A stretch of 64,000 nt of DNA from a virus: the IMG/VR virus record IMGVR_UViG_3300045988_115146, one strand, 5' to 3'. Made by a program: the position numbers and the translations under genes. Positions 10,983-53,992 of the stretch are shown here, piece by piece. The notes beneath the pieces were generated by a model. That model ran no database searches. It saw nothing but the letters and a program-made list of their open reading frames with translations, and was not told the origin of the DNA. Each line of letters begins with the position of its first letter. Within the stretch, counting starts at the first letter, position 1.

Positions 10983-11102
10983 ATGAAAAGATATGATCCA
11001 ATGGTAGAAGCAGCTAAACCCTTATTAGTGTTATATACTGTAGCTATAATAATTGGTTTGATATTGGGTATTATTTGTTGGATATTTGATATAAGAATAT
11101 GA
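10983..11102 (+). CDS. Small (39 aa) hydrophobic protein
   Basis: MKRYDPMVEAAKPLLVLYTVAIIIGLILGIICWIFDIRI. Below ORF-track cutoff. ATGA overlap with helicase start fills an otherwise empty gap. Confidence 0.35.
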   Translation: MKRYDPMVEAAKPLLVLYTVAIIIGLILGIICWIFDIRI

Positions 11103-12529
11103 TAACTATAACTATCAAGAACTGTAATGTTTGTGAGATTTCTGGCCCAGCTAAATTCACAAATAAATTATATGAGGCTTTCAGGATCAAGCATCCTGAT
11201 GCCTGGCATATATTGATGTATAGCAGGGCAAAGAATTGGGATGGGTATGTAAAATATATCTCAGATTATGGTCAATTCAAGATAGGCCTACTGAATAAGG
11301 TTTATAATGAATGCTGTAAAATGGGACAAAAAGTAAAAATTATAGATAATAGACCCCCGTTAGGAATTAAACCAGTAATTCCAGATGTACTGGGAGATAA
11401 AAATCTACGGGAAGTACAAAAAGAAGCTCTAGAAAAGATACTAAATAATCGTGTAGGGGATACTCCTTTCCTGATTTGTGCATCAGACCTGGCTGTAAAT
11501 TTTGGTAAGACCCTTATATTTTGTGGGTTACATCAAGCCTTCAATAGGAAATTGAAAACTGTGTTGTTATTAAACAGTGCAGATTTGTTTAAGCAATTCA
11601 AAAAGGAGATTCCAGAGTTGTTACCAGGTGAAAAGATTGCATTTATCCAAGGTAGTAAATGTAATGATTGGGGTAACTTCAATGTGTGCATGGTACAGTC
11701 ATTATCGTCTAACATAAAACGGTACCAAAGATTCCTATCAGAAATTGATATGGTATTAATAGATGAGGCTGATGTCATAGATAACAAAACCTATAAAACC
11801 GTAATACAGCACTTATACAACTCTAGAATACGAATTGGATTGAGTGGTACAATTTACATGAGTGACCAGAAGAAGAAATTGATACATAACCTAAATATCA
11901 TGTCTTTCATTGGTGATAAAGTTAACCAAGTAAAACTGGTTGATATGATAGAGAAAGGATATTCTACTCCCATCACCTGTAAACTGGTATATGCTCCCTT
12001 TAAGTATTCTAAAGAAGTTGACTATCCAACAGAATACAAAGAAGTGATATGTGATAACAAAGAAGCTTGGAAGTTTTCTCTTGATCGTACAAGATACAAT
12101 CTGAAGAGAAAAAGATTGCCAGCTCTTATTGTATGTAAGTTCATTGACCATTGTGAAAATCTTTACAAGTATTACGTTAAACATCTTGGAAATGATTACA
12201 GTATACAATATGTACATCATAAGACAAAAGGGCGTGATAAAATTCTACAAGATTTCAGGGAAGGGAGAATTGATGTGCTAATTGCTACTACAATCATTTC
12301 TAGAGGTCAAAATTTCCCTGAATTGAAATATCTTCAGAATACTGCATCAATGGATTCTAATGAAAAATCGATACAGATATTGGGACGTCTTGCAAGAACT
12401 CACATGAATAAGAAGAAGGCATATCTTGATGACCTTCAATTCCCTGGTCATTACCTTAAGAGGCATGGCAATCATAGAAAAACGTATTATCAGAAAGAAA
12501 ATTTAAAGGTAATCAAGGTGGAGGGATAA
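11099..12529 (+). CDS. Superfamily II DNA helicase (DEAD/DEAH-type, UvsW/RecG-like role)
   Basis: Motif I NFGKTLI, motif II LIDEADVID, motif III LSGT, motif VI QILGRLAR. Confidence 0.75.
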   Translation: MITITIKNCNVCEISGPAKFTNKLYEAFRIKHPDAWHILMYSRAKNWDGYVKYISDYGQFKIGLLNKVYNECCKMGQKVKIIDNRPPLGIKPVIPDVLGDKNLREVQKEALEKILNNRVGDTPFLICASDLAVNFGKTLIFCGLHQAFNRKLKTVLLLNSADLFKQFKKEIPELLPGEKIAFIQGSKCNDWGNFNVCMVQSLSSNIKRYQRFLSEIDMVLIDEADVIDNKTYKTVIQHLYNSRIRIGLSGTIYMSDQKKKLIHNLNIMSFIGDKVNQVKLVDMIEKGYSTPITCKLVYAPFKYSKEVDYPTEYKEVICDNKEAWKFSLDRTRYNLKRKRLPALIVCKFIDHCENLYKYYVKHLGNDYSIQYVHHKTKGRDKILQDFREGRIDVLIATTIISRGQNFPELKYLQNTASMDSNEKSIQILGRLARTHMNKKKAYLDDLQFPGHYLKRHGNHRKTYYQKENLKVIKVEG

Positions 12530-13189: not shown

Positions 13190-13765
13190 ATGATTCAATT
13201 AGAGTTCACAAAGATTCGGGAGGTTAAATCCCCCAACCGAGCAAACGAAGGGGATGCAGGTTTAGATTTCTATATCCCTAAGTTATCAGAAAAGGATATA
13301 CTAAGGGTGGGGGAAAAAGATTTACGTGATATGGTTGGTATCAACCGTAAGATGTATAGTAAAGGTTATATCAAGTTCAATGGTATGGGAACTGATGATC
13401 TTTATGTAATCGTTAAACCTCATGGAAGGTTGCTTATTCCATCAGGTATAAAGGTACTGATCAATCCCAAAGAGTCTATGCTAATGGCAGCAAACAAATC
13501 TGGGGTTGCTACTAAAGATGGGTTGACATTCACTGCAGAGATTGTGGATAGTCCATATACTGGTGAAATGCACATAGGTATACAAAATAATTCACCTGAA
13601 GAAGTATGGATACCTCTTCAACAGGATAAGAAGATAATGCAGTTCATACATGTTCCAATCCTACTTTCAAATCCCATAGAGATACCTAATGAGGAGTATG
13701 AAGAGAAAGCAAAGGACTGGGGAACAAGAGGAGACAAAGGATTTGGTGCACACGATAACAAATAA
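13190..13765 (+). CDS. dut: dUTP diphosphatase (trimeric dUTPase)
   Basis: AGLDFYIP, IVDSPYTGEMHIGIQN and C-terminal RGDKGFGAHD match dUTPase motifs. Start moved to the ATG at 13190, just after the upstream stop. Confidence 0.85.
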   Translation: MIQLEFTKIREVKSPNRANEGDAGLDFYIPKLSEKDILRVGEKDLRDMVGINRKMYSKGYIKFNGMGTDDLYVIVKPHGRLLIPSGIKVLINPKESMLMAANKSGVATKDGLTFTAEIVDSPYTGEMHIGIQNNSPEEVWIPLQQDKKIMQFIHVPILLSNPIEIPNEEYEEKAKDWGTRGDKGFGAHDNK

Positions 13766-13769
13766 GAAG

Positions 13770-14681
13770 ATGGACTCGAGGGACATAATTCAGGAACCTG
13801 GTATCATACCCGGTGATAAGTATTTGGAAGAGATATACTCTATGCAAAAAGAACTGTTATCTGGTTATATAGGCATAGAGGGATTACCACAATACCCAAT
13901 AGACATAAATACTAAGGCATCACAATCCTTGTTGAAGGATTTCACTGCTAGAGTGGTAGAGGAATTATCAGAGGGATATGAATCATTCCAAGCTATCAGT
14001 GAAAGTATGAGTAAAAATCATTGGAAGTTAGCTAATGGTAATTGTGAAGACTCAATCTACATTGAATTGTTAAACAATCTTCAAAATGCCAATGAAGAGA
14101 ATGCAGATGCAATACACTTCTTTGTAGAGTTGCTAATATATGCAAATGTAGGTCCAGATGACATTATGTCATATATGGAGAAGTATGCTAAGGATAATCA
14201 CTTCAATAAGATTGAAATTGATAGTTTCAATGAAATGAGAGGTGATGTATTATATACTGCTCAGAATATGGGAGTGAAATGGTTGATGGATGAGGGTAAT
14301 ATTGATGTTACACTTAATCATCAAAAGATAGATCTCTTAAAGTGGTATGAGAATAAAGATAGTGGATCTTTACCTGAATACAACATAAACTTATTAGTTG
14401 GTGGTAGGATGTATAACTATGAGGACTATGAAATTCAATATCCATACATACTGTGGAAGATAACCCATCACCTTAACATTGCTCGTAACTTTTTGAAGAA
14501 TAAGCCTTGGAAGCAATCTCAGGTAATGACTCAAGAGTTAAAGTACCAGGCTGAATTAGTGAAGGCATTCATATATTTCTGTGGATACCTTGGATGGATA
14601 GGTATGGATTCAAAGGAAGTATTCTACATCTACTTCAAAAAGAATCACATTAATATGTTCCGTCAAAAGTCGAAGTATTAA
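13770..14681 (+). CDS. All-alpha NTP pyrophosphohydrolase (MazG / dimeric dUTPase-like), tentative
   Basis: Acidic helix motifs ARVVEELSEGYESF and NANEENADAIHFFVELL plus KPWKQSQ resemble the E..E / E..D metal-binding helices of MazG/dUTPase_2 proteins. Start set at the ATG at 13770. Confidence 0.45.
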   Translation: MDSRDIIQEPGIIPGDKYLEEIYSMQKELLSGYIGIEGLPQYPIDINTKASQSLLKDFTARVVEELSEGYESFQAISESMSKNHWKLANGNCEDSIYIELLNNLQNANEENADAIHFFVELLIYANVGPDDIMSYMEKYAKDNHFNKIEIDSFNEMRGDVLYTAQNMGVKWLMDEGNIDVTLNHQKIDLLKWYENKDSGSLPEYNINLLVGGRMYNYEDYEIQYPYILWKITHHLNIARNFLKNKPWKQSQVMTQELKYQAELVKAFIYFCGYLGWIGMDSKEVFYIYFKKNHINMFRQKSKY

Positions 14682-14682
14682 T

Positions 14683-15672
14683 ATGAACATAGTAAAGAGC
14701 AATAGGCCAGTAGATGCTTGGGAGCAAATACTTGAAAATTTTTTGGTTAAGAAACCAGAATGGTTTAGTGAAGGGATAGGGTATAACTTAACCGATTCAT
14801 TATTCACTTATGATCTGGTAGTAGAGATATCAGAAGCTAAGTTTGATCCAGAATTTGATTTTGGTAAGTTATTTGGATATACAGCTACTAAGTGGACTGG
14901 ATTAATAACTAATTACCTTGATCTTGATATTCTTGATCAGGCAAAGTTAATGATAAGGAAGTTAGAGGAGAATAAGGCAGTAAATAGGAATTATCACATC
15001 GGTTTCCATTTTGCTGACAATCATGGCAGTGGAAAAGGATGCTTGGTTGGAGGTATATTCTCCCGTAAGATTGGGGTTGATAATCCTGAGGTAACAGTAA
15101 TCATACGTTCATCCGAAGTAGTTACAAGGTTGCCAATAGACATGTTGCTGTTCTGTCGTATGGGACAGTACATTTATGGTCATGATAATTTTTCATTGAA
15201 GTTAGTTATCAAGGCTGCTTGGGCAAATGATACTACCATACTTCTATATCAGAATATAAAGGACTTAAAAGAGTTCTTGAAAGAAAACTGTAATGATGAG
15301 GCTCGTAGGAAAAAGATACGTAAGTCACTGAAAAAATTAATGACAAGTGATGAGGCTAGTTATAAAACCTATGGCAACAGTTTTAGAGCTTTCAAAGTAC
15401 TTAGGAAAGATTTAGGATATAAGCAAAAATCAATGTTGGCCTCTGACTTAGAAATTGGAGATTGGGATGGAATTCCATTACCAGAGGTATGTCCATCAAT
15501 TCTAAAGCGTAACATGATAAAGAAGACATATCTTAAGTTCACAGAGAAGTATGGCCTTAAACTAAAGTTGGAAGAGAATACAGAGAAGAAAAAGAAAAAG
15601 TTGATATCATTCTCTTCACCTGATGAAGATGATATGGATGATAACGAACCAATAGCTGAGGCTAATGAGTAA
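14683..15672 (+). CDS. Thymidylate-synthase-fold protein, divergent paralog A (candidate pyrimidine C5 hydroxymethylase)
   Basis: By-eye alignment to ThyA: FGYTATKW ~ YGxQWR, GKGCLVGG ~ catalytic PCH, IIRSSEVVTRLPIDMLL ~ YQRSCDVFLGLPFNIAS (Asp replaces Asn177). Paralogous to the next ORF (DPEFDFG.., KW..LI.NY.D). Confidence 0.4.
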   Translation: MNIVKSNRPVDAWEQILENFLVKKPEWFSEGIGYNLTDSLFTYDLVVEISEAKFDPEFDFGKLFGYTATKWTGLITNYLDLDILDQAKLMIRKLEENKAVNRNYHIGFHFADNHGSGKGCLVGGIFSRKIGVDNPEVTVIIRSSEVVTRLPIDMLLFCRMGQYIYGHDNFSLKLVIKAAWANDTTILLYQNIKDLKEFLKENCNDEARRKKIRKSLKKLMTSDEASYKTYGNSFRAFKVLRKDLGYKQKSMLASDLEIGDWDGIPLPEVCPSILKRNMIKKTYLKFTEKYGLKLKLEENTEKKKKKLISFSSPDEDDMDDNEPIAEANE

Positions 15673-16450
15673 GTTAAAAGTAAAGAATAACCTGTTAGTG
15701 TTCCGAAATAGCATGAAAGCTTGGGAGGGGCTTAACAGGTTATTCTTATTCAATATTCCCGGTTTGGATATTGAAAGAATTGGTAAAGCTCAATATATAA
15801 ATGATTTGGTTATTTATATTAAAGAACCTCTAGTAGACCCGGAATTTGATTTTGGAAGGCACTTTAATTATACATCTGCTAAATGGAAATCTTTGATAGC
15901 TAATTATATAGATGAGAATTCAATGATTGATCTGAGACAAGAAGTGGTGAGATCATTGAATTCAAGAAAGATTTTCAACATAGGGTATCAGTTTGATAAT
16001 AAGCATGCACATGGAAAGAATTGTTTATTATCATTGACAGTATCAAAGAAAGCTGGTATGGATTATCCCATGATAACGGTATTCATGAGGGCTTCTGAAG
16101 TAACTAAAAGACTAATATGTGATCTTTTATTAATACAAAGAATTGGTGAATACATATTCACTGGGGATAAATTCTGTATATCAATACACTTTAGTCAGAT
16201 ATTCAATGATGATACGGTATTATTGATGTACCATGCTCATGAGGATCTATTAAAGCTTAGTGATAGAATTGGTATATATGATAGTAATTGGTATGATAGG
16301 CTGAAGTATCTACTAAAAGTAGATCCCGATAAGATAAAGTATAAGGTACATAAAAGAGCATTGAAAGTACTTAGGCCAGAATTGTTTAAGTATCCTAAAA
16401 CTCTGGCCAAGGATTGTACACTGGGTAATGAAGACTGGCTACCTTTCTAA
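15665..16450 (+). CDS. Thymidylate-synthase-fold protein, divergent paralog B
   Basis: Shares DPEFDFGRHFNYTSAKWKSLIANYID, HGKNCLLS and MRASEVTKRLICDLLL with paralog A over full length. 8-nt overlap with paralog A. Confidence 0.4.
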   Translation: MSKLKVKNNLLVFRNSMKAWEGLNRLFLFNIPGLDIERIGKAQYINDLVIYIKEPLVDPEFDFGRHFNYTSAKWKSLIANYIDENSMIDLRQEVVRSLNSRKIFNIGYQFDNKHAHGKNCLLSLTVSKKAGMDYPMITVFMRASEVTKRLICDLLLIQRIGEYIFTGDKFCISIHFSQIFNDDTVLLMYHAHEDLLKLSDRIGIYDSNWYDRLKYLLKVDPDKIKYKVHKRALKVLRPELFKYPKTLAKDCTLGNEDWLPF

Positions 16451-16494
16451 GAAAGGGAAGTCTATTGAATTGCAAACATAAAAAAATTATAACC

Positions 16495-17265
16495 ATGAGA
16501 ATATATTCAAATCCCTACGAATTGATGTCTGAGACTGCCCGTAATATATGGGAGATGGGTACAGAGGTAAAACCAAAAACTTACCAAAACAAAGTAATAG
16601 AAGGCAAAGATGAGTTCATAACTAAAGAGCTTATTTGTGAACAATATTGCTTAACTCACATGGATGATCCATCTCCATTATTTGTATTTACCAAATCTAA
16701 AGATTGGGCAGATGCCGAATTTAAAGAGAGAATTAGTGGAGTAATGGAAAATCCAGGTAAAGCTTGGGAATTACGTAAAGATATCTGGGAAGAGTTCTTA
16801 GTAAATGGGTTCTTTGATTATACCTATGCTGAACGTATGAATGAGACAGTTTCATATAAAGGCAAGGCATTTTCTAAAATAGGAGCAATTATAGAGTTGT
16901 TAAAAACAGACAACGATACTAGAAAAGCCATACTAAATATATATGGTGAGGATGGTTTTAATGAGGATTGTGATTCAAACTATCTTGGTGGTGAACATAG
17001 AATACCATGTTCAATGTATTATGATTTCCTTATCCGGGAGAATGCCAGAGGAGAAAAGCAATTAAATATTTGCTATCACCAAAGATCATCCGATTTTGTA
17101 ACTCATTTCGGAAATGATGTATATTTGGCATGGAGACTGATGGAATATGTAGCTAGTGAAGTAGGAATTAAACCTGGATATTTATATCAAACTATTGATA
17201 GTTTGCATAGCTATAAAAAAGATTGGGTAAAGTTAAAGACATCAATCCAAACTGAATTGAGATAA
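16495..17265 (+). CDS. Thymidylate synthase family enzyme (ThyA / dUMP hydroxymethylase-like)
   Basis: TRKAILNIY (SRR..w block), RIPCSMYYDF (catalytic Cys), CYHQRSSDFVTHFGNDVYLAWRLMEY (QRSxD..G.pfN) and DSLHSY (D.H.Y). Lacks the canonical DRTGTGT N-terminal block. ATG 16495 preferred over TTG 16465. Confidence 0.7.
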   Translation: MRIYSNPYELMSETARNIWEMGTEVKPKTYQNKVIEGKDEFITKELICEQYCLTHMDDPSPLFVFTKSKDWADAEFKERISGVMENPGKAWELRKDIWEEFLVNGFFDYTYAERMNETVSYKGKAFSKIGAIIELLKTDNDTRKAILNIYGEDGFNEDCDSNYLGGEHRIPCSMYYDFLIRENARGEKQLNICYHQRSSDFVTHFGNDVYLAWRLMEYVASEVGIKPGYLYQTIDSLHSYKKDWVKLKTSIQTELR

Positions 17266-17348: not shown

Positions 17349-17425
17349 GGGCCCATAGCTCAGTTGGTAAGAGCAGCGGACTCATAATCCGAAGGTCGGG
17401 GGTTCAAGCCCCTCTGGGCCCACCA
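17349..17425 (+). tRNA. tRNA-Met (or Ile2) anticodon CAT, CCA encoded
   Basis: Cloverleaf folded by hand: acceptor GGGCCCA/TGGGCCC, D arm GCTC..GAGC, anticodon loop CTCATAA, T arm GGGGG-TTCAAGC-CCCTC, ACCA end. G1-C72 argues for an elongator type. Confidence 0.85.
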
Positions 17426-17524
17426 AAGATTTTCTCTTATTTTCTTATTTTGTGCGTGGACAATACAAACAGTCCTGGTAAATTCGAAGGTACTAGACAG
17501 TAGTGATACAGGCTAGTACCAATT

Positions 17525-17599
17525 ACGGGAGTAGCACAGTCAGGTTAGTGTACTTGCTTTGGGAGCAAGTGGTCGCAGGTTCGAATCCTGTCTCCCGTA
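17525..17599 (+). tRNA. tRNA-Pro anticodon TGG
   Basis: Acceptor ACGGGAG/CTCCCGT, anticodon stem CTTGC/GCAAG with loop TTTGGGA, T arm GCAGG-TTCGAAT-CCTGT. Confidence 0.85.
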
Positions 17600-17612
17600 C
17601 ATATTAGTAAAG

Positions 17613-17695
17613 GCTCGGATGGAGAAATAGGTAAACTCATCAGATTTAAGCTCTGACGGTCATTGACCTTGCGGGTTCGACTCCCGCTCCGAGTA
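17613..17695 (+). tRNA. tRNA-Leu anticodon TAA (class II, long variable arm)
   Basis: Acceptor GCTCGGA/TCCGAGT, anticodon stem TCAGA/TCTGA with loop TTTAAGC, variable arm GGTC-ATT-GACC, T arm GCGGG-TTCGACT-CCCGC. Confidence 0.8.
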
Positions 17696-17719
17696 CATAG
17701 TATCAAATACTCTTGTCTT

Positions 17720-18418
17720 ATGAATGATGTTATAATTACCATGGCTGGAAAGGGTACAAGAACAAATAAAGAAGTACCCAAACAATTCTTAAAAGTATCA
17801 CAAGATAAATACCTATTTGAAATCTCATTAGATAAATTTATACGTACTGGATGCTATCGTAAGATAGTTCTTGTTGTGAATCCAGAGTATGTAGAGTGGG
17901 TAAAAAATAGAATATCTAATAACTATCCAGGTAAATTAGGCAGATTAATCACAGTAATACCAGGTGGTGATACTGCACAACACTCGAGAATCTTAGGATT
18001 TGAAAGCTTATTAACAGATGAGGAATCACTTTGGCCAAATACAGTTACTTTCCATGATGGTGTAAGAGTTGGTTTCGATGAAAATCTACTAACATTCATG
18101 ATTAATAATTGTAGGTTTAATAGCACTGCATATGTACCGTATATTCCAGCAACTGGTACATTAAGATTAGATTCTGATAAGGTAGTATATACTAAGGATA
18201 AGTACATGAGGCTTCAGACTCCCATGGTATTTCCATTTTACCAATTCTATGGATGTTATAATAAGGCAAAAGATAAGGGTATAGAATACCAAACAGCTTC
18301 TGATTTGTATGAAGACAACAGTGGTTTAGTGAACTATGTAATGGGTAATAGATTGAACTTCAAGGTAACTTTCGCAGAAGATATTGATGTAGTAAGATTA
18401 TTATACAATCATGAATAA
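17720..18418 (+). CDS. IspD/TarI-family cytidylyltransferase (CDP-alcohol forming nucleotidyltransferase)
   Basis: N-terminal [23 protein letters not shown] matches the AGxGxR...PKQ(F/Y)L signature. IVLVVNP and [10 protein letters not shown] blocks. Start set to the ATG after tRNA-Leu. Confidence 0.7.
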
Positions 18419-19283
18419 TATGAGTTATATTAGTAATCATATCCATAATGGTCATCTAATAAGCAACCTTAGGAGAGAAGTATGGGATATAGAACTAGAT
18501 ATGTTAGATCTAGTAGTTAATATATGTGACAAGATAGGAGTAAAATATTATCTTGATGCAGGTACACTATTAGGTGCAGTTAGACACCAAGGATTCATAC
18601 CTTGGGATGATGATATCGATTTGGTAATGTTCAGAGATGAATATGATAAGTTTATATCATACTGTAGGGAAAATTTAGAATATCCATATTTCTTACAAGT
18701 ACCAGAAACTGATACTTCTATTTATCAACATGCAAAGATAAGGAGGAGTGATACAACAGCTATATTAGAAAGGGATCTAGAAGCTAATTGGGATTTTAAT
18801 CAAGGCATATTCATAGATATATTCCCATTAGATAGAGTTCCAGAAGATAAGGGGAAAAGGGAAAGATTTCTATATGAATTGCAATTAATTAAACTAGAAC
18901 TCTTCTTTTTAAAGAATAGGAGCTGGAAATTTGCTAATATTCCCCTTGAAAGGGAAAGAATGAATTACCTTAAAAACCTTTATGAAAAGAATAGGAAAAG
19001 GTATAATAACACTCAAGAGAATTGTTGGGCAACATTAGCTTTTCCTGAACATAACAATATCATAAAGAATATTGATTTTTACAAGAACCAATATCCGGAT
19101 GTATTCTTAACATTTGAAGGTAGAAATTTGAGAGTACCGAATATTTACCATGGAGTATTGGAAGACATATATGGAGAGGATTACTTAACTCCCAAGAAAT
19201 ATTCTGGATTACATGGTAGGATATTGGTGAATACTCATAAAACATATAAAAACAATATGGAAGACTTTCAAATATTGAAGTAG
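18411..19283 (+). CDS. LicD-family phosphotransferase (CDP-alcohol dependent, fukutin/LicD type)
   Basis: [36 protein letters not shown] is the hallmark LicD motif. 8-nt overlap with the cytidylyltransferase gene. Confidence 0.8.
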
Positions 19284-19403: not shown

Positions 19404-20972
19404 ATGGAGTCAAGATATGCCATAATAAAGAGTTTTTCACAGGTTAAGAAACTTGTGAAAGCTTGTTTGAAGACAGGTATAGCTTCAATAGACTATGAGA
19501 CTAATGCTGAAGGCATATACAATAAAACATTTAGACCAACAATTCTATCAGTAACTTTCCAGGTTGGTTCTGGAGTATCTATTCCATTATGTCATCATGA
19601 ATATGATAACCCTCATTGGAAAAAATGGCTTCTATACTTTGGTAGAAAAGTAGTTGAGAATCCAAAAGTAACTAAAGTAGGTTGGAATCTGAAGTTTGAC
19701 CTTCAGATATTCGAGTTGTATGGTATATATGTAAGAGGTACAGTACTTGATGGTATGTTAATGAAGTATCTCTTAAATGAAGAGAAACCAAATGACCTTA
19801 AATCAATGGTTCGTAGGTATTTACCAGAACACGGAGATTACGAAAAAGCTGATAAGTTTGATAAGATACCATGGAATAAAAAGCCACTGGAACCACTCTG
19901 CAAATATGGATGTCAAGATACCGATTATACCCTACGATTATCTATGTTCTTTGAGAACAAATTGATAGAAATAGGTATGTATCCATTATTAAGGCATCTG
20001 ATAATGCCAGCATCAAGAGTATTACAGCATGCAGAGAAAACTGGTTTATACCTTGATAGGAAATTCAATCAGGAATTACTTGAATCTTACAAGCCAAAGA
20101 TTGATCAAGCAACTTTAAATTGCTTGAATCTTCCCAGAGTTAAAAGATTCTCTAGATGGCTTATCCAAGAAAGAATAAGCAAATACATTTCTTCAATTGA
20201 AATGGAACTTGAAGACTTGGATTATAGTGATCCAAAAAATGCAAGGAAGATAGCTAGCAGGGAACAAAAAATATCTAACATAAGAGCTGGTGTATATACA
20301 ACCAAGAAAGAATTAGAATTAACCCGTGATATAAATCTTGGTAGTAAAGTAGACTTACCAATGTTGTTATATTCTGAAAAGGGGTTCAAATTCCCTATTA
20401 TAAAATATACGAAGGATAAGACTACAAATCGTGATACTGATAAGCCGAGTACTGATGAGGATACATTGGTAGAACTTCGGTTGTCAATTAAGAATCCCGA
20501 AAGTCCCAAAGCAATATTCTTGGATAATCTACTCAAGTTGAGAGGATTGAAGAAGATGTACACTACATATATAAAAGGGTGGCACGATAAAGTACAGGAT
20601 GATAATAAATTACATGGAAGATTTTTGATACATGGAACAACTAGCGGGAGATTGAGTTGCATAGGCGGAGATACAAAAGTATTAACTCAATATGGAGAAA
20701 TACCAATTATAGATATTAAGGATTGGATTGGTGAAGGATTATGTGCCATGACTAAAGATGGGTGGCAATTAATAGAAAACTTCATATATAAGGGTGTTGA
20801 TGATATGTATGAAGTAACACTTGAAGATGGTACTTCTATTCAATGTACTTTAGATCATAAATTTATAACTAATAAAGGTACTAAAAGATTAAGGGAAATT
20901 TACAATAAATACCGAAATACTATTGATTCTAAAATTAAACTTTTAAGATATGTCCCAGACTACGAACAATAG
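19404..20972 (+). CDS. Family A DNA polymerase, N-terminal fragment (3'-5' exonuclease + palm start) fused to split-intein N half
   Basis: Exo I SIDYET, Exo II WNLKFD, Exo III YGCQDTDY. Extein ends HGTTSGRLS at 20657. Then CIGGDTKVLT...TLDH... (104 aa, intein blocks A/B) and TAG. Confidence 0.85.
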   Translation: MESRYAIIKSFSQVKKLVKACLKTGIASIDYETNAEGIYNKTFRPTILSVTFQVGSGVSIPLCHHEYDNPHWKKWLLYFGRKVVENPKVTKVGWNLKFDLQIFELYGIYVRGTVLDGMLMKYLLNEEKPNDLKSMVRRYLPEHGDYEKADKFDKIPWNKKPLEPLCKYGCQDTDYTLRLSMFFENKLIEIGMYPLLRHLIMPASRVLQHAEKTGLYLDRKFNQELLESYKPKIDQATLNCLNLPRVKRFSRWLIQERISKYISSIEMELEDLDYSDPKNARKIASREQKISNIRAGVYTTKKELELTRDINLGSKVDLPMLLYSEKGFKFPIIKYTKDKTTNRDTDKPSTDEDTLVELRLSIKNPESPKAIFLDNLLKLRGLKKMYTTYIKGWHDKVQDDNKLHGRFLIHGTTSGRLSCIGGDTKVLTQYGEIPIIDIKDWIGEGLCAMTKDGWQLIENFIYKGVDDMYEVTLEDGTSIQCTLDHKFITNKGTKRLREIYNKYRNTIDSKIKLLRYVPDYEQ

Positions 20973-22004
20973 GCAAAAGGTATTCAAAGATAAATCTATC
21001 AACGGTCCAAGGAGAAAATTAAAGTTAATAGTAGAGGATGGTAAAAGATATATAAAGAAAGAAGATCTTTTACATTACTTCTTTCAAGAGAATTGGAATA
21101 TAGAAGACTTTAATTATCATTTTGGCATTGGTCATAGGATAGTGAGAGGTTCTCTATATAAATGGTTTACTAGGGAAGAAATAGAGGAATCTCATAGAAA
21201 GAAGATTGCTAATAAACAGATTGGTAGTAATAATTCTAATAGGATTAATTGGTATAAACCCCGTAAGCTTATACCTTTATTGGATTTAGAAGAAGCCGTT
21301 AAAAAATCTACTTGTAAACAGGATTTGAAGGAGAGACTACAATTAACTTCTTGGGAATTGTCACACATACAACAGTTCTATAACTTTAAACTACCAAATA
21401 GATCTCCTTTACTTAATACTAAACTACAGTATTCTCTTTCTAGATGTGATATAAAACTTTTATGTAAAGTTATTACTGGAATGGGATGGGAAGATGTATT
21501 TTTCTATAATACTCCTAAGGCTATCTATAAAATGGATTGTCTTATTTGGGAACTTAGGAAGATAAATCGTTCTTTGAGGAGAGCTTTTAGGAAACAGATA
21601 GTAGATAATGGTATTAAGTTTCCTACAAATTTGATAGAGTATAAATTTCACAAAGCTCTAGAAAAAATGGATATAGAGCATGAAATACAATATTATATAC
21701 CAGAACATAATATACATCTAGACTTTTTAATAAAAGGTCATTACAACTTGGAATTAGATGGAAATTTGCATGAAGAAGAAGCAGATAGTGGTAGAGACCG
21801 TATTCTCAAATCTCTTGGCTATAAAATTATAAGACTAGATTTAAAATCTCTAAATCTTACTAGATTCTCAAAAGAAAAGGAGGTAAGGAAATGTATAAAG
21901 AAATTGGTATTACCAAAGTTAAACCAATAGGTAAGAAAGGTGTATATGATTTATCCGTTATGAACTGTCATCAGTTTGTGGCTAATAATATCCTAAATCA
22001 TAAT
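20658..22004 (+). mobile_element. Split intein (IntN 20658-20969, IntC 21891-22004) with an embedded free-standing endonuclease gene
   Basis: Inserted in the invariant GRLS|S..PNLQ motif. 1347 nt (449 codons), so both polymerase halves share one frame. IntC ends VANNILNHN followed by Ser. Confidence 0.8.
20950..21930 (+). CDS. Free-standing homing endonuclease, Vsr/DUF559-like PD-(D/E)XK domain
   Basis: Different frame from the polymerase halves and overlaps both. C-terminus HEIQYYIPEHNIHLDFLIKGHYNLELDGNLHEEEADSGRDRILKSLGYKIIRLD matches the Vsr-like ..DF....l.iE.DG..H...D..Rd..L...G...iR pattern. Confidence 0.65.
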   Translation: MSQTTNNRQKVFKDKSINGPRRKLKLIVEDGKRYIKKEDLLHYFFQENWNIEDFNYHFGIGHRIVRGSLYKWFTREEIEESHRKKIANKQIGSNNSNRINWYKPRKLIPLLDLEEAVKKSTCKQDLKERLQLTSWELSHIQQFYNFKLPNRSPLLNTKLQYSLSRCDIKLLCKVITGMGWEDVFFYNTPKAIYKMDCLIWELRKINRSLRRAFRKQIVDNGIKFPTNLIEYKFHKALEKMDIEHEIQYYIPEHNIHLDFLIKGHYNLELDGNLHEEEADSGRDRILKSLGYKIIRLDLKSLNLTRFSKEKEVRKCIKKLVLPKLNQ

Positions 22005-23045
22005 TCTCAAGAACCAAACTTACAGCAAATCCCAAAGACTTCAGTAGACCCAAATATAAAGAAGCAATTAGTAGCCCCAGATGGTAAGTTGTACATGGCT
22101 CTTGACTACTCTCAAGCAGAGTTAAGAATCATGGCTCATCTGTCTGGGGATGAAACATATCTTGAGGCTTTTGCAAAAGGTCAGGATCCTCACCTTGCTA
22201 TTGCAGCAAAGAAGTATGGGGTATCATATGAGGAAGCATATAAAGCTTACAGTGATGAACAACACCCAGATCATAATCTTTGGAAGAACCGAAGAAAGCA
22301 GGCAAAACAGATTTGCTTCGGTATTATCTATGGTATTCAGAAGAAACTGCTTGCAGTTAAATTGTCAGATCCAAAAGCTGGTATTATTGTAACACCAGAT
22401 GAAGCTCAGCAGCAGTTAAATGAATTCTTCTATGAACATCCTAAGATTAAAAAGTTCATGATTCATCAAGAAAAGGTATTGATTAAGCATGGGTATATAA
22501 AATCTTTGTTCGGAAGAAAGAGAAGGTTACCTCAGGTATATTCCGATAATGAACAAGAAGCAGCATACGCAGTACGATTATCTGTTAATATGCCATGTCA
22601 ATCAGCAGCATCTGATATGAACTTATTTGCTTCAGTATTAAACTATTGGAAAATGAGACAAGGTAAGTTGCCATTTATGCAAGAGACTTGTAATGTTCAC
22701 GATGCTACCTACTATTTGGTGAGGCCAGAATATATAAATACATGGGTAGTACATGAAATATGGGAAACTTGTCGTAACCCTAATACAAAAGAATATTTTA
22801 ACTTTCAGATAGACGACGTCAATATGAGCATGGATTTTGTTATAGGACGTTCAATGGCAGAGGAATTACCATTTATACCCGGTTATGATTATAGGAAAAT
22901 GCTTAAACCAGATTTTAATCCAGATGAGTACTTAGAAGAACATCGTAAGTACAGAGGTATTGAAATAGAAGATTACCCTAAGTTGTATCCAGAAGAGATA
23001 GCTAGGAATAAAATGGAATTTGAGAAAAGGATATATGAAAGGTAA
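21891..23045 (+). CDS. Split-intein C half fused to family A DNA polymerase C-terminal fragment
   Basis: 38-aa IntC, then SQEPNLQQIP. Motif A LDYSQAELRIMAH, motif B RRKQAKQICFGIIYG, motif C NVHDATY. AAGGAGGT at 21877-21884 upstream of the ATG. Confidence 0.85.
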   Translation: MYKEIGITKVKPIGKKGVYDLSVMNCHQFVANNILNHNSQEPNLQQIPKTSVDPNIKKQLVAPDGKLYMALDYSQAELRIMAHLSGDETYLEAFAKGQDPHLAIAAKKYGVSYEEAYKAYSDEQHPDHNLWKNRRKQAKQICFGIIYGIQKKLLAVKLSDPKAGIIVTPDEAQQQLNEFFYEHPKIKKFMIHQEKVLIKHGYIKSLFGRKRRLPQVYSDNEQEAAYAVRLSVNMPCQSAASDMNLFASVLNYWKMRQGKLPFMQETCNVHDATYYLVRPEYINTWVVHEIWETCRNPNTKEYFNFQIDDVNMSMDFVIGRSMAEELPFIPGYDYRKMLKPDFNPDEYLEEHRKYRGIEIEDYPKLYPEEIARNKMEFEKRIYER

Positions 23046-23956: not shown

Positions 23957-24331
23957 ATGTCAAAAGTAGAATTAAACCTTCTTTCAGTAGAAGAAGCAAA
24001 ATGGTTAAACGAAAAACTGAAAGGTGTAGGAACACCAACAGGTGGGAGGGTATTAATTGTATCCCCGAAGGTAACATCAGAGACTAAAACTCAGAGTGGT
24101 CTTTATATCCCACAAGATCATGATAAGGATACTGTACCACGTAAAGGGGTAGTAATTCAAGTGGGGTATATTACCAAAGAACAGGAAGTAGATTATCCAG
24201 GTCTTCAGGTTGGTGCAGTAGTAACTTATGGTCTATATGCAGGTAAAGAATTAGATGTAATAGACCTTCCTGATCAGGTAACAACTATATTATCACTGAA
24301 CGAGATACTTTATATTGAAACCAATAAATAA
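23957..24331 (+). CDS. GroES-like co-chaperonin (Cpn10)
   Basis: PTGGRVLIVSPKVTSETKTQSGLYIPQ...PRKGVVIQVG...LQVGAVVTYGLYAGKE parallels GroES P..DRVLV....E.KT.gGI.lP....G.V.AVG...vGD.V. Confidence 0.65.
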   Translation: MSKVELNLLSVEEAKWLNEKLKGVGTPTGGRVLIVSPKVTSETKTQSGLYIPQDHDKDTVPRKGVVIQVGYITKEQEVDYPGLQVGAVVTYGLYAGKELDVIDLPDQVTTILSLNEILYIETNK

Positions 24332-26385: not shown

Positions 26386-27295
26386 AAAGCCAAGAATGCT
26401 TATGGTAGTGGACGGTAGTAACCTTGCTCACCGTTCATACCATAAGTTTAAGAATCTTAAAGCTAATAATGGAGCTGGAACAGGATTAGTATATGGGTTC
26501 TTAAGAATATTTGGTTCATACCTTGTAAGGTTTAAGCCAAGTCATGTGGTAATTACATTTGATACACATAAGAGTAAATCATCAAACTTCCGTAATGACT
26601 TATTGGAGGGTTATAAAGCTCACAGAAGTAAGGTAAGTATGGATTATGAAGACTTCAATAAACAATTGGCTTTGTTGAGAAGGATATTGAGATTACTTGG
26701 AGTTCAAATGATCATAGACAATAAAGGATTGGGACATGAATCAGATGATTACATTGCTTGGTTGGTAATAAACCATAAAGGAAAATCACTGATAATATCT
26801 TCTGACAAAGACTTCTGTCAATTGTTAGATAAGAAGGTAAAGATATTCAACCCAAGTAAAGAAACTCTAGTACATAACCAGACATGTAGAGAGATAATGG
26901 GATATTCAGCAGAAGAATGTGTTGACTACTTAATACTCAACGGAGATAAGTCAGATGACATACCTGGTTATTATGGTATGGGAGAAGTAAAGACTAGATC
27001 ATTCCTTGATAAATTTGGTAGTATAGCAGATTTTATTAATGATAGTGAAGCAGAATTCAAAGGTATAGAAAGAGATCAATTAGAAGAGTTATATAAGAAG
27101 AATAAGTCTCTGATAGACTTGAGATCTGCTTTGAATCTGTATCCAATAAAGATAATCCCTTGGGTAAAAGGATGTACTAATAATATAAGGAAAGACAGGT
27201 TATTCATGGTATTAGATAAGTTTAACCTAAGATCTTTCAAGATACCAGATTTTTTAGAACCTTTCAAAAAACTACAGACTTATGTATCACGGTAA
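26345..27295 (+). CDS. 5'-3' exonuclease / flap endonuclease (PIN-type, RNase H-like)
   Basis: MLMVVDGSNLAHRSYH, ESDDYIAWL, SSDKDFCQL, NGDKSDDIPG match Pol I 5'-nuclease/FEN acidic clusters. True start may be Met18 (26396). Confidence 0.75.
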   Translation: MIQKKMKSSQTRGRKPRMLMVVDGSNLAHRSYHKFKNLKANNGAGTGLVYGFLRIFGSYLVRFKPSHVVITFDTHKSKSSNFRNDLLEGYKAHRSKVSMDYEDFNKQLALLRRILRLLGVQMIIDNKGLGHESDDYIAWLVINHKGKSLIISSDKDFCQLLDKKVKIFNPSKETLVHNQTCREIMGYSAEECVDYLILNGDKSDDIPGYYGMGEVKTRSFLDKFGSIADFINDSEAEFKGIERDQLEELYKKNKSLIDLRSALNLYPIKIIPWVKGCTNNIRKDRLFMVLDKFNLRSFKIPDFLEPFKKLQTYVSR

Positions 27296-27941
27296 GTATC
27301 AAATTATGTTCACCGGTGTTTCTGGAGTAGGGAAAACTACTATAGCTAAAGAAATAGCCGAATTATTGAATATACCATTCATATCTGGGTCATATTCAGA
27401 TTTAGTACCAGAAACAAAAGATATGCCACATGCTGATATGATACAGCAAGATGCAAAAACAGTATTTATGCAAGATATGCAAGTATTGAATCTACGTAAC
27501 AAAGCTTTCCGAATGGAAGATAACTTTGTAACAGATAGATCATACTTTGATTCTGCAGCATATTTCATTAATAAGTTATCCCATAGAATTGAAGAATGTG
27601 ATCTAGATCATGCCATCAACTTATGTAGAATGTTACTTGGTCAACAGTGTACACATTTGATATTCATACCATTTTCGGATAAATTCTTTAATGAGTGGGT
27701 AACTGAGAATAATGGTAAAAGGGTATTGTCAAAGTACTACCAATATCAAGTATCTCAAATAATGTATGGTTTATTAAAAGTATGGGGATATAAACCAGAT
27801 TCAAAAATATATCAACTATGTAATGGAGTTCCCAATACAGGGGTGATGGATATAATGGGTTATAAGGTAAAAGTTCTCATACTTGATGAGATGAATCACG
27901 AAAAGAGAGAATACTTAATCAGGAAGTTTCTTCAGTTATGA
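27282..27941 (+). CDS. P-loop kinase (candidate dNMP kinase)
   Basis: MFTGVSGVGKTTIAKEIAELL Walker A at the N-terminus, about 210 aa, in a nucleotide/DNA metabolism context. Confidence 0.4.
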   Translation: MYHGKYQIMFTGVSGVGKTTIAKEIAELLNIPFISGSYSDLVPETKDMPHADMIQQDAKTVFMQDMQVLNLRNKAFRMEDNFVTDRSYFDSAAYFINKLSHRIEECDLDHAINLCRMLLGQQCTHLIFIPFSDKFFNEWVTENNGKRVLSKYYQYQVSQIMYGLLKVWGYKPDSKIYQLCNGVPNTGVMDIMGYKVKVLILDEMNHEKREYLIRKFLQL

Positions 27942-52999: not shown

Positions 53000-53992
53000 A
53001 TGAATGTACTTGGTATCTGTGGAGCGCAAGGAGCGCTTCTTTTCGAGTTTAAAGATCATCTTGTAGCTAATGTTGAACCAAGAGCTGTATTCCATTCCAA
53101 AGGAGAACTACAATGGAAGCTTAATTTTGGTGATATTCCATTCTTAAAGAGCCTTGAAGAGGTGAAATTTACCAAAATTGACATAATCATTGGTTCTCCA
53201 TCCTGTGGTCATAGCTCTGTATTCTCCTATTCAAGGAAGAAAACCCTGGGTAAACCAAGAGAAGATGCAACCTTAAATCTGTATCTTTCTAGTGTTAAGA
53301 AGTTCAAACCAGCAGTATTTATGCTTGAGAACCTTCCAAAGCTTCTAGATTTCATCCCTATCAGTGAATGGGAAAATAATTTGCCTGATTATCAGCTTAT
53401 AGTACACTGTCATTCCGTTACGGTATTTGGTAATTCCCAGAAAAGTAGGAAAAGATTAGTGATGATAGGAGTACGTAAGGATTCTGGAATCAATCCAAAA
53501 GTATTTGATCACACTTTTCAAGTAACTAAGCCTAAGAATCTGTGTCAATTGAAGAAAAAAGTAAGAAAAGACATAAATTACAGAGAATCTGATGACAAGA
53601 AATTAGCAATGTATCATTATGCTGATAAGTCTAAGACTACACTTACTGTAGCTCAAGTGAGGAAGCTATGGAAAACTGAATTCAAAAATGATCACAAATG
53701 GCCAATGAGAACTCATAAGATGAAAACTCTACCAGGAGTATATCGCAATAGGAAGAAAGGTTACCCTTTGACTGTGAGACCTTCATCCAGGCAATTTAAT
53801 CCTCATGGAAGGATAATGGGACTTGATGAATATAGAGTCATCATGGGATTCCCAGAATCATTTAAGGTATATTTTGATAAGAACAATCCAACCTATTGGT
53901 TGAACAAGGGGAGGAATACCCTGACAAAAGGAGCTGTATACGAGAATTCACTTTGGTTAAAGGCTTGCTTGAGGAAAGCTAAAATACTCTAA
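53000..53992 (+). CDS. DNA (cytosine-5) methyltransferase-like enzyme with non-canonical motifs
   Basis: Motif I-like GICGAQG, motif IV GSPSCGHS (PCQ replaced by SCG), motif VI MLENLP, motif VIII QKSRKRLVMIG, motif IX/X IMGFPESF...GRNTLTKGAV. Confidence 0.6.
   Translation: MNVLGICGAQGALLFEFKDHLVANVEPRAVFHSKGELQWKLNFGDIPFLKSLEEVKFTKIDIIIGSPSCGHSSVFSYSRKKTLGKPREDATLNLYLSSVKKFKPAVFMLENLPKLLDFIPISEWENNLPDYQLIVHCHSVTVFGNSQKSRKRLVMIGVRKDSGINPKVFDHTFQVTKPKNLCQLKKKVRKDINYRESDDKKLAMYHYADKSKTTLTVAQVRKLWKTEFKNDHKWPMRTHKMKTLPGVYRNRKKGYPLTVRPSSRQFNPHGRIMGLDEYRVIMGFPESFKVYFDKNNPTYWLNKGRNTLTKGAVYENSLWLKACLRKAKIL

Follow-up and report, generated by a model that had tools for sequence, protein, structure and literature searches.

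A strongly diverged branch of the thymidylate synthase superfamily, encoded beside an atypical thymidylate synthase homolog in gut phages and possibly involved in deoxycytidine modification

The 64,000-nucleotide (nt) viral sequence IMGVR_UViG_3300045988_115146 from IMG/VR (hereafter the window, meaning the whole stretch analysed) is a fragment of a tailed-phage genome with a G+C content of about 34%. Its replication module carries three consecutive plus-strand genes that are the subject of this study, namely X1 (14683..15672; 329 amino acids, aa), X2 (15665..16450; 261 aa) and gene 3 (16495..17265), an atypical thymidylate synthase (TS) homolog of the PF00303 family. A sequence-only reading of the window had proposed three tandem TS-fold genes at this locus, and the three open reading frames (ORFs) indeed lie at these coordinates, including the start of gene 3, an ATG at 16495 that is corroborated by homologs beginning with MRIYSN. 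X1 shares 8 nt (ATGAGTAA) with X2, and the two are, as had been proposed, paralogs of each other, with 93 of 267 residues identical (35%; E-value (E) 2e-45). X1 has no match in Pfam, NCBIfam or PHROGs and X2 none in Pfam or NCBIfam, the sole PHROG match of the latter being phrog_34294, a group of unknown function. PF00303 was matched neither by X1 and X2 (E<=1) nor by the 57 further members of their family included in a 59-member scan (E<=0.01), and no description of this family, which we refer to as the X family, was found in Pfam, NCBIfam, PHROGs, the structure databases or the searchable literature.

When modelled by AlphaFold2 from family alignments, X2 reached a mean predicted local distance difference test score (pLDDT) of 90.4 and a predicted template modelling score (pTM) of 0.90, and X1 a pLDDT of 85.8. 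When both models were compared with the PDB using Foldseek, the strong matches were exclusively to proteins of the TS fold, at a probability of 1.00 (for X1, all of the top 50). The best match was in both cases AfhB (9iqu; E 7.5e-7 for X2 and 4.1e-5 for X1), followed by MilA (E 1.1e-6 for X2) and then by the deoxycytidine monophosphate (dCMP) hydroxymethylase of phage T4 (E 4.6e-4 for X2) together with ordinary TS. Among the predicted viral structures of BFVD, TS and dCMP hydroxymethylases likewise ranked after relatives of X, all of which are labelled 'uncharacterized protein', one of them from Pseudomonas phage PMBT14. At the sequence level, a 59-member X profile found only AfhB among PDB sequences (E 9.2e-5), mainly through a common N-terminal strand, helix and hairpin; this required the more diverse profile, as one of 40 sequences returned noise only. 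Profile-profile comparison of X with TS using hhalign gave an E of 0.0099 and a probability of just 4% with small profiles, although the core was correctly aligned, and an E of 4.6e-5 with a probability of 68.5% when large profiles (339 X and 181 TS sequences) were used. Since Foldseek, hhalign and the profile match to AfhB agree, the TS fold of both paralogs and the placement of their Cys and Asp on active-site positions, previously aligned by eye, are confirmed, and no unrelated fold was seen among the strong matches. Within the TS superfamily, X forms a new branch that has diverged strongly.

The hhalign alignment equates C120 of X with the nucleophile C146 (Escherichia coli ThyA numbering), R142 with R166, E145 with D169, D153 with N177 and K73-W74 with Q97-W98. 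The corresponding key residues are Y66, K70, W71, Y78, C120, R142, S144, E145, R149 and D153 in X1, and Y69, K73, W74, Y81, C120, R142, S144, E145, K148, R149, D153, R159 and R231 in X2. Across 59 X members, diverging to about 17% identity, K73, Y81, C120, R142 and D153 are invariant, and Y69, W74, L77, F110 and E145 nearly so. X-like copies at 13-24% identity all retain Lys or Arg at position 73 along with Y81, C120, R142 and D153, and all but one retain E145. The equivalent of position 169 is Glu or Asp, never Asn, among the orthologs and members aligned. Conservation of the nucleophile, the phosphate-binding Arg, the acidic residue facing the cofactor and the base-reading position argues for X being an active enzyme that would act on a cytosine nucleotide.

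Other parts of the TS active site are less readily traced in X. In the hhalign alignment the general base Y94 falls on the variable S71, a conserved Tyr (Y69) lying two residues upstream; H207 and Y209, which contact the deoxyribose in TS, fall on the hydrophobic L186 and M188, and the trans-acting pair R126'/R127' is met by a gap, so that clear counterparts of these residues are not evident. The N-terminal half of X, which would hold the equivalents of E58 and the folate-contacting W80, resisted alignment to ThyA, and the equivalences given by extended and global hhalign modes were unreliable. At the start of helix J, L172 and G173 of ThyA are replaced by K148-R149 in X. X further possesses an added, conserved C-terminal segment rich in Lys and Arg (Y226, K227, R231, K234). 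X1 has, in addition, an extra basic helix and a conserved C-terminal extension (GxWDGIPxPxxCPSIxxRNxIK..Y.KF) that ends in an acidic disordered tail.

Within the clade of the window, the core residues are conserved at about 100% both in X1 orthologs (n=119) and in X2 orthologs (n=102), and positions 147/148 (VT in X1 versus TK in X2), 119, 68, 227 and 229 consistently tell the two groups apart; position 145 is Asp in 86% of X1 orthologs. By these conservation patterns both copies appear to be maintained. X2 resembles the single-copy form of other phages and X1 is the derived copy.

Gene 3 is recognisable as a TS homolog by PF00303 (E 2.5e-15; 56.8 bits against a cutoff of 24.3), but over residues 95-253 only. 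The proposal that it lacks the canonical N-terminal block holds solely in this sense. It has R143, C146, S147, R166, S167, D169, D177, H207 and Y209 in E. coli numbering and also retains Y94 and R126. The same proposal had read its HFGND motif as keeping the Asn of canonical TS, which is off by one residue: RSSDFVTHFGND of gene 3 aligns without gaps to RSCDVFLGLPFN, both in HMMER against a eukaryotic TS and in MAFFT with E. coli ThyA and T4 gp42 (the latter two sequences having been checked just for length and landmark residues). The Asn thereby falls on F176 of ThyA and the Asp (D208) on N177, as in FRND of T4 gp42 (Asp179) and QLD of AfhB. Since the Asp of gene 3 occupies position 177, X1, X2 and gene 3 are all Asp-type, that is, cytosine-type by sequence, and the premise of one Asn-type enzyme beside two Asp-type enzymes is wrong. 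The core insight of the sequence-only reading holds; the Asn/Asp contrast beneath its interpretation does not.

Sequences of the gene 3 type (n=174) share R143, C146, Ser or Thr at 147, R166, S167, D169, D177 and H207, with Tyr or Phe at 209, and about 80 further homologs from later loci show the same core, bar a few fragments, with position 209 being more variable. The best PDB relative of a profile of this subtype is again AfhB (9iqu; E 5.7e-19). TS with Asp177 and a residue other than His at 147 have been found enriched in cytosine-modified phage contigs in a metagenome association study, where they co-occur with all-alpha nucleoside triphosphate (NTP) pyrophosphatases and dCMP deaminase (PMC8670742).

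Several known activities can be rejected on residue grounds. T4-type dCMP hydroxymethylases require an acidic residue (Asp or Glu) at the third position ahead of the catalytic Cys and Ser or Thr at the second position ahead of the catalytic Tyr (PMC6400193). These positions are occupied in gene 3 by Arg (RIPC) and Tyr (YTY), respectively, and X has Gly117 in place of an acidic residue at the first of them, which rejects both as enzymes of this type. Asn at position 169 (D169N) is diagnostic of flavin-dependent 5-hydroxy-dCMP synthases (PMC13326640), and this assignment is out for gene 3, which has D169, and for X, with E145 or Asp. X is no canonical ThyA either, having D153 at position 177. 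The same holds for gene 3 as the deoxythymidine monophosphate (dTMP) synthase of the phage, given its D177, R143 and S147 and the canonical ThyA found beside it in relatives (below).

Comparison with characterised members of the superfamily places all three proteins apart from each of them. AfhB of E. coli phage HY126 (9iqu, 9iqc) is a flavin-dependent dCMP 5-hydroxylase grouped with the 5-hydroxy-dCMP synthases RB69 gp48 and DLP3 gp80. It is the closest solved relative of gene 3 and, for X, the top structural match as well as the source of the sole PDB sequences found by profile; like X, it is a small phage TS-fold protein (217-238 residues in the PDB entries) with a catalytic Cys and Asp at 177. 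It differs in having Asn169 (RSQN) and Glu143, whereas position 169 of X is Glu or Asp and its position 143 cannot be aligned, and gene 3 has Asp169 and Arg143; identity between AfhB and X is just 12-14%, with a template modelling (TM) score of about 0.5. MilA, a cytidine monophosphate (CMP) hydroxymethylase (5jnh, 5b6d) and the second-best structural match of X2, is another cytosine-specific TS-fold enzyme with Asp at 177. It acts, however, on a ribonucleotide in antibiotic biosynthesis, possesses Asp143 and a full folate site, and superposes poorly on X (root-mean-square deviation (rmsd) of about 15 A over a long alignment). T4 gp42, the dCMP hydroxymethylase (1b5d, 6a9a), shares the TS fold and Cys nucleophile with X and gene 3, and its cytosine-reading Asp179 is aligned with D208 of gene 3 and D153 of X, FRND of T4 corresponding to FGND of gene 3. 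It operates in a pre-replicative pathway with a dCTPase and a deoxynucleoside monophosphate (dNMP) kinase, and differs from X in its folate-binding helix region, for which X has no alignable counterpart. ThyA (PF00303) has the fold, C146, R166 and the acidic residue 169 in common with all three genes, and Y94, R126, S167, H207 and Y209 in addition with gene 3. It differs from all three by its Asn177, and from X by the absence of a PF00303 match in the latter.

The association of X with gene 3-type TS extends well beyond the window. Of 86 related loci found through X, 85 carry a TS with R143 and D177 after X, the one exception being truncated, and the genes are usually arranged as helicase, dUTPase, NTP pyrophosphatase, X1, X2, TS and family A polymerase. 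In the reverse direction, X-like genes are present in 58 of 83 loci found with distant gene 3-type TS queries. The combination of two X genes and one TS recurs in several lineages, both as X-X-TS and as X-TS-X, the two X copies being 16-26% identical in X-TS-X loci and about 53% identical in the one X-X-TS locus. A canonical ThyA (305-325 aa) lies in the clusters of loci L072 (3668-4639), L077 (4768-5745) and L080 (4000-4917), either between X1 and X2 or directly before X1, so that as many as four TS-fold genes stand in succession, and another replaces X1 in L073 (5014-5982) and L074. The true ThyA signature (N177, Leu or Val at 143, H147) is seen in L072, L073, L077 and L080, with L143 in L072, L077 and L080. 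These three still carry X1, X2 and gene 3, and since a canonical ThyA coexists with them in the cluster, the dTMP synthase of these phages is neither gene 3 nor X. In the window, the cluster and the ORFs scanned yielded neither an Asn-type TS nor a Zn-dependent dCMP deaminase. The lack of the former there, together with the ThyA-bearing relatives, fits the suggestion that more than plain dTMP synthesis takes place here.

TS with R143 and D177 also occur without X, in about 20 complete loci, where they adjoin genes for Asn-synthase-like amidotransferases, for N6/N4 or C5 DNA-methylase-like proteins, or for kinase-like or uracil-DNA glycosylase (UDG)-like proteins. In L091, L093, L104, L107, L112 and L114 the genes just after the TS encode Asn-synthase-like glutamine amidotransferases (PF00733 and GATase_7) and N6/N4 DNA-methylase-like proteins, the former being called by Pfam in L104, L107 and L112 and by a common MCGF... 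N-terminus in L091, L093 and L114. The amidotransferase and methylase genes of these X-less phages are candidates for alternative tailoring enzymes. From these gene associations the R143/D177 TS appears to be a hub whose partner enzymes vary, X being the commonest of them.

The X family is small and phage-borne, accounting for 255 of the 50%-identity clusters in a set of 1.84 billion representative proteins. Within 185,579 species genomes it was found only on five contigs of metagenome-assembled genomes (MAGs), L170-L174, which look like binned phage genomes; these are phage-sized and were binned into Clostridium, Dysosmobacter, Romboutsia, Mycoplasma and Spirochaetaceae MAGs. The binning hints weakly at a Bacillota host, which would fit the relatives in Clostridium perfringens phages and the LicD gene of the window. 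X is abundant in human gut phages, single clusters at 90% identity containing thousands of sequences, and the window itself is 90-96% identical at the nucleotide level to MT121964 ('Phage DP SC_6_H4_2017', from human faeces), which is almost unannotated. Single-copy X adjoining a gene 3-type TS is found in marine phages, with a dCMP deaminase alongside, and also in phages of C. perfringens that have been cultured, among them CPAS-15, CP3, CPD4 and Clo-PEP-1; a Zn-dependent dCMP deaminase adjoins X and TS in L002 and L005. The X homolog of CPAS-15 (MN417334; L006 5833-6582) is annotated as 'colanic acid biosynthesis glycosyltransferase WcaC' and has as neighbours a dUTPase, an Asp-type 'thymidylate synthase' and a kinase; the WcaC label looks like a misannotation.

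In the replication module of the window, a DnaB-like helicase and a second helicase (11099-12529) are followed by a dUTPase-superfamily gene, an NTP pyrophosphohydrolase gene, X1, X2 and gene 3. The last five, from 13190 to 17265, are nucleotide-metabolism genes in tight, operon-like packing. The first of them (13190..13765, plus strand) encodes a trimeric dUTPase-superfamily enzyme, either a dUTPase or dCTPase-like (PF00692, E 4e-9; NCBIfam dut, E 1.7e-14, under the curated cutoff; PDB dUTPases to E 4e-7), and is syntenic in most related loci. The second (13770..14681, plus strand) encodes an all-alpha NTP pyrophosphohydrolase of the dimeric dUTPase/MazG superfamily, a candidate dCTPase, matched by PF08761 in its C-terminal part (E 1.2e-5), by phrog_12184 'nucleotide pyrophosphohydrolase' (E 1.3e-19) and by phrog_173 (E 5.8e-11). 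Its ORF is listed from 13689, but its start is likely the ATG at 13770, directly past the dUTPase stop, and its own stop is 1 nt apart from the start of X1.

Gene 3 is directly followed by a plus-strand cluster of tRNA-Met(CAT), tRNA-Pro(TGG) and tRNA-Leu(TAA) (17349-17696), which accounts for many spurious nucleotide matches to unrelated phages, and then by genes for an IspD-like cytidylyltransferase (17741-18418, plus strand; PF01128, E 9.8e-24) and a LicD-family phosphotransferase (18411-19283, plus strand; PF04991, E 4.6e-39). This pair, located between gene 3 and the DNA polymerase, is present in just 15 of 86 related loci. It may represent decorating enzymes that would place a phospho-alcohol on a base hydroxyl, or be unrelated and act on the host surface or teichoic acids. 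The family A DNA polymerase (19404-23045, plus strand) is split by an intein region that holds a DUF559 endonuclease-like ORF, and an HNH gene comes after it; a second intein, with an HNH domain, is found within an 840-aa ORF at 54863-57385 (plus strand). Downstream of the polymerase lie genes for a Cpn10 (GroES-like) co-chaperonin (23957-24331, plus strand; PF00166, E 1.4e-11), phage-encoded and situated in the replication module, gp32, RecA, a 5'-3' exonuclease, a P-loop kinase-like protein and Mre11/Rad50-like proteins. The P-loop nucleotide-kinase-like protein (27282..27941, plus strand; Pfam AAA_18, AAA_28 and Cytidylate_kin2) is, from its gene context, a candidate dNMP kinase for a modified nucleotide, and a similar kinase gene lies within the same module in L005 and L006. 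A homolog of C5 cytosine DNA methylases is encoded farther away (53000..53992, plus strand; PF00145, E 6e-17) and is 90% identical at the nucleotide level to an annotated methyltransferase of MT121964. Genes of PF00145 with a closely similar N-terminus are located directly after the TS in L098 (6756-7724) and about 1.5 kb downstream of it in L096 (8270-9295); given such genes near R143/D177 TS elsewhere, the methylase of the window is possibly part of the same system.

The adjacency of X and TS in most related phages examined points to DNA cytosine modification, and we give an even chance to a reading in which the five-gene module (13190-17265) would provide a T4-like, pre-replicative supply of a C5-modified deoxycytidine nucleotide to the phage polymerase. 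In such a pathway, the dUTPase-like protein and the all-alpha NTP pyrophosphatase would convert dCTP and dUTP to monophosphates, and gene 3, with Asp177 and Arg143, would act on dCMP. X1 and X2, catalytically active and closest to AfhB, would attack C6 of a cytosine nucleotide with Cys120, Asp153 reading N3/N4, Arg142 holding the phosphate and Glu145 facing the cofactor site. They might introduce a C5 substituent of another kind or further convert what gene 3 produces, in separate, non-redundant roles as a heterodimer or in successive steps, a heteromeric enzyme and two-step chemistry having also been suggested by the sequence-only reading. The kinase would then restore the product to the triphosphate pool. 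It speaks for such a pathway that AfhB, MilA and T4 dCMP hydroxymethylase, all cytosine-specific, are found near the top of the Foldseek lists.

Several observations weigh against it. X is without clear counterparts of a number of TS catalytic and binding residues (Y94, H207/Y209, R126'/R127'), and this makes a folate-dependent chemistry of X doubtful, as far as its sequence can tell; the D169N signature of the flavin-dependent 5-hydroxy-dCMP synthases is absent from it as well. The roughly 20 complete X-less loci imply that X is not obligatory for an R143/D177 TS. Finally, the phage's own C5 DNA cytosine methylase (53000-53992) would be left substrate-less if every cytosine were already C5-substituted. 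Searches of the literature, which extended to the C. perfringens phages and to Flandersviridae with TS, turned up no account of the X family and none of modified DNA in these phages.

Part of the evidence could be read differently. X1 and X2 might be subunits of a heteromeric TS-like complex, formed by X1 and X2 or by X and gene 3, in which one partner lends binding or regulatory residues much as Arg126'/Arg127' are lent across the obligate ThyA dimer. The recurrence of two divergent X copies beside one TS in independent lineages, the overlap of X1 and X2, which would permit translational coupling, the ortholog-group differences at the active-site-adjacent positions 147/148 and 119 and the lack of an aligned counterpart of the trans-acting Arg pair in X would all suit such an arrangement. 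Both copies nevertheless hold the full invariant set of catalytic-type residues, a misfit with a dead partner, and a single X suffices in many phages, so that we consider a heteromer of this kind unlikely. Somewhat harder to credit is that X is a cofactor-independent, hydrolytic TS-fold enzyme that either deaminates dCMP or 5-substituted dCMP through Cys addition at C6, or removes or exchanges a C5 group. Addition of a Cys at C6, as in the chemistry of C5-methyltransferases and TS, speeds the deamination of cytosine; X keeps the nucleophile, the Asp and the phosphate-binding Arg while its folate-binding region cannot be aligned, and the scans that yielded neither an Asn-type TS nor a Zn-dependent dCMP deaminase would leave room for such an activity. 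Against this stands the near invariance of E145, equivalent to the pterin-binding D169, which suggests that the cofactor site is kept, and a deaminase role would be redundant in L002 and L005, where a dCMP deaminase lies beside X and TS. One version, a bypass with gene 3 from dCMP via 5-methyl-dCMP to dTMP, was rejected as redundant with the canonical ThyA of relatives that keep X1, X2 and gene 3, and with the dCMP deaminase of relatives.

That X might act after replication, on cytosine in DNA or RNA, with the basic C-terminal helices binding the polymer, seems to us quite improbable. The conserved Lys/Arg-rich C-terminus, K148/R149 and the extra basic helix of X1 could serve this purpose, and the trans-acting Arg pair and H207/Y209 are without evident counterparts in the X alignment. 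The basic residues could, however, equally stand in for the missing phosphate-binding arginines, the X genes are sited between NTP pyrophosphatases and a mononucleotide-type TS, and all characterised TS-fold enzymes known to us use mononucleotides. Least probable of all, and in our view hardly tenable, is a role for X without catalysis, as a nucleotide-binding or scaffold component of a phage deoxynucleoside triphosphate (dNTP)-synthesis complex: the lack of clear counterparts of several canonical TS catalytic residues would be accommodated by it, but Cys, Arg and Asp remain invariant at catalytic positions down to 13-24% identity, the pattern of an active site.

Beyond the supply of a C5-modified deoxycytidine nucleotide proposed above, it is tentatively conceivable that X catalyses a reaction on a cytosine nucleotide that is new to the TS fold, either a folate-independent C5 substitution or a Cys-C6-mediated conversion of the product of the Arg143/Asp177 TS, leading to an undescribed cytosine hypermodification. 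If the reaction is new, abundant phages of the human gut and of C. perfringens would carry such a hypermodification, which the IspD-like and LicD proteins might extend with a phospho-alcohol group in the subclade of the window.

TS-fold enzymes are the phages' means of rewriting pyrimidines, and a flavin-dependent hydroxylase was just recently recognised in this supposedly folate-only superfamily. The X family is a further, far more diverged branch, which has strictly conserved active-site residues yet lacks any Pfam model or annotation. Knowledge of its reaction would also correct existing annotations, both the colanic acid glycosyltransferase label on X of C. perfringens phage and the thymidylate synthase label on gene 3. 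X is tied to an atypical cytosine-type TS in human gut, marine and cultured C. perfringens phages, the last of which make it directly testable, and its reaction, once worked out, might bring to light a DNA base and an anti-restriction strategy that are both new.

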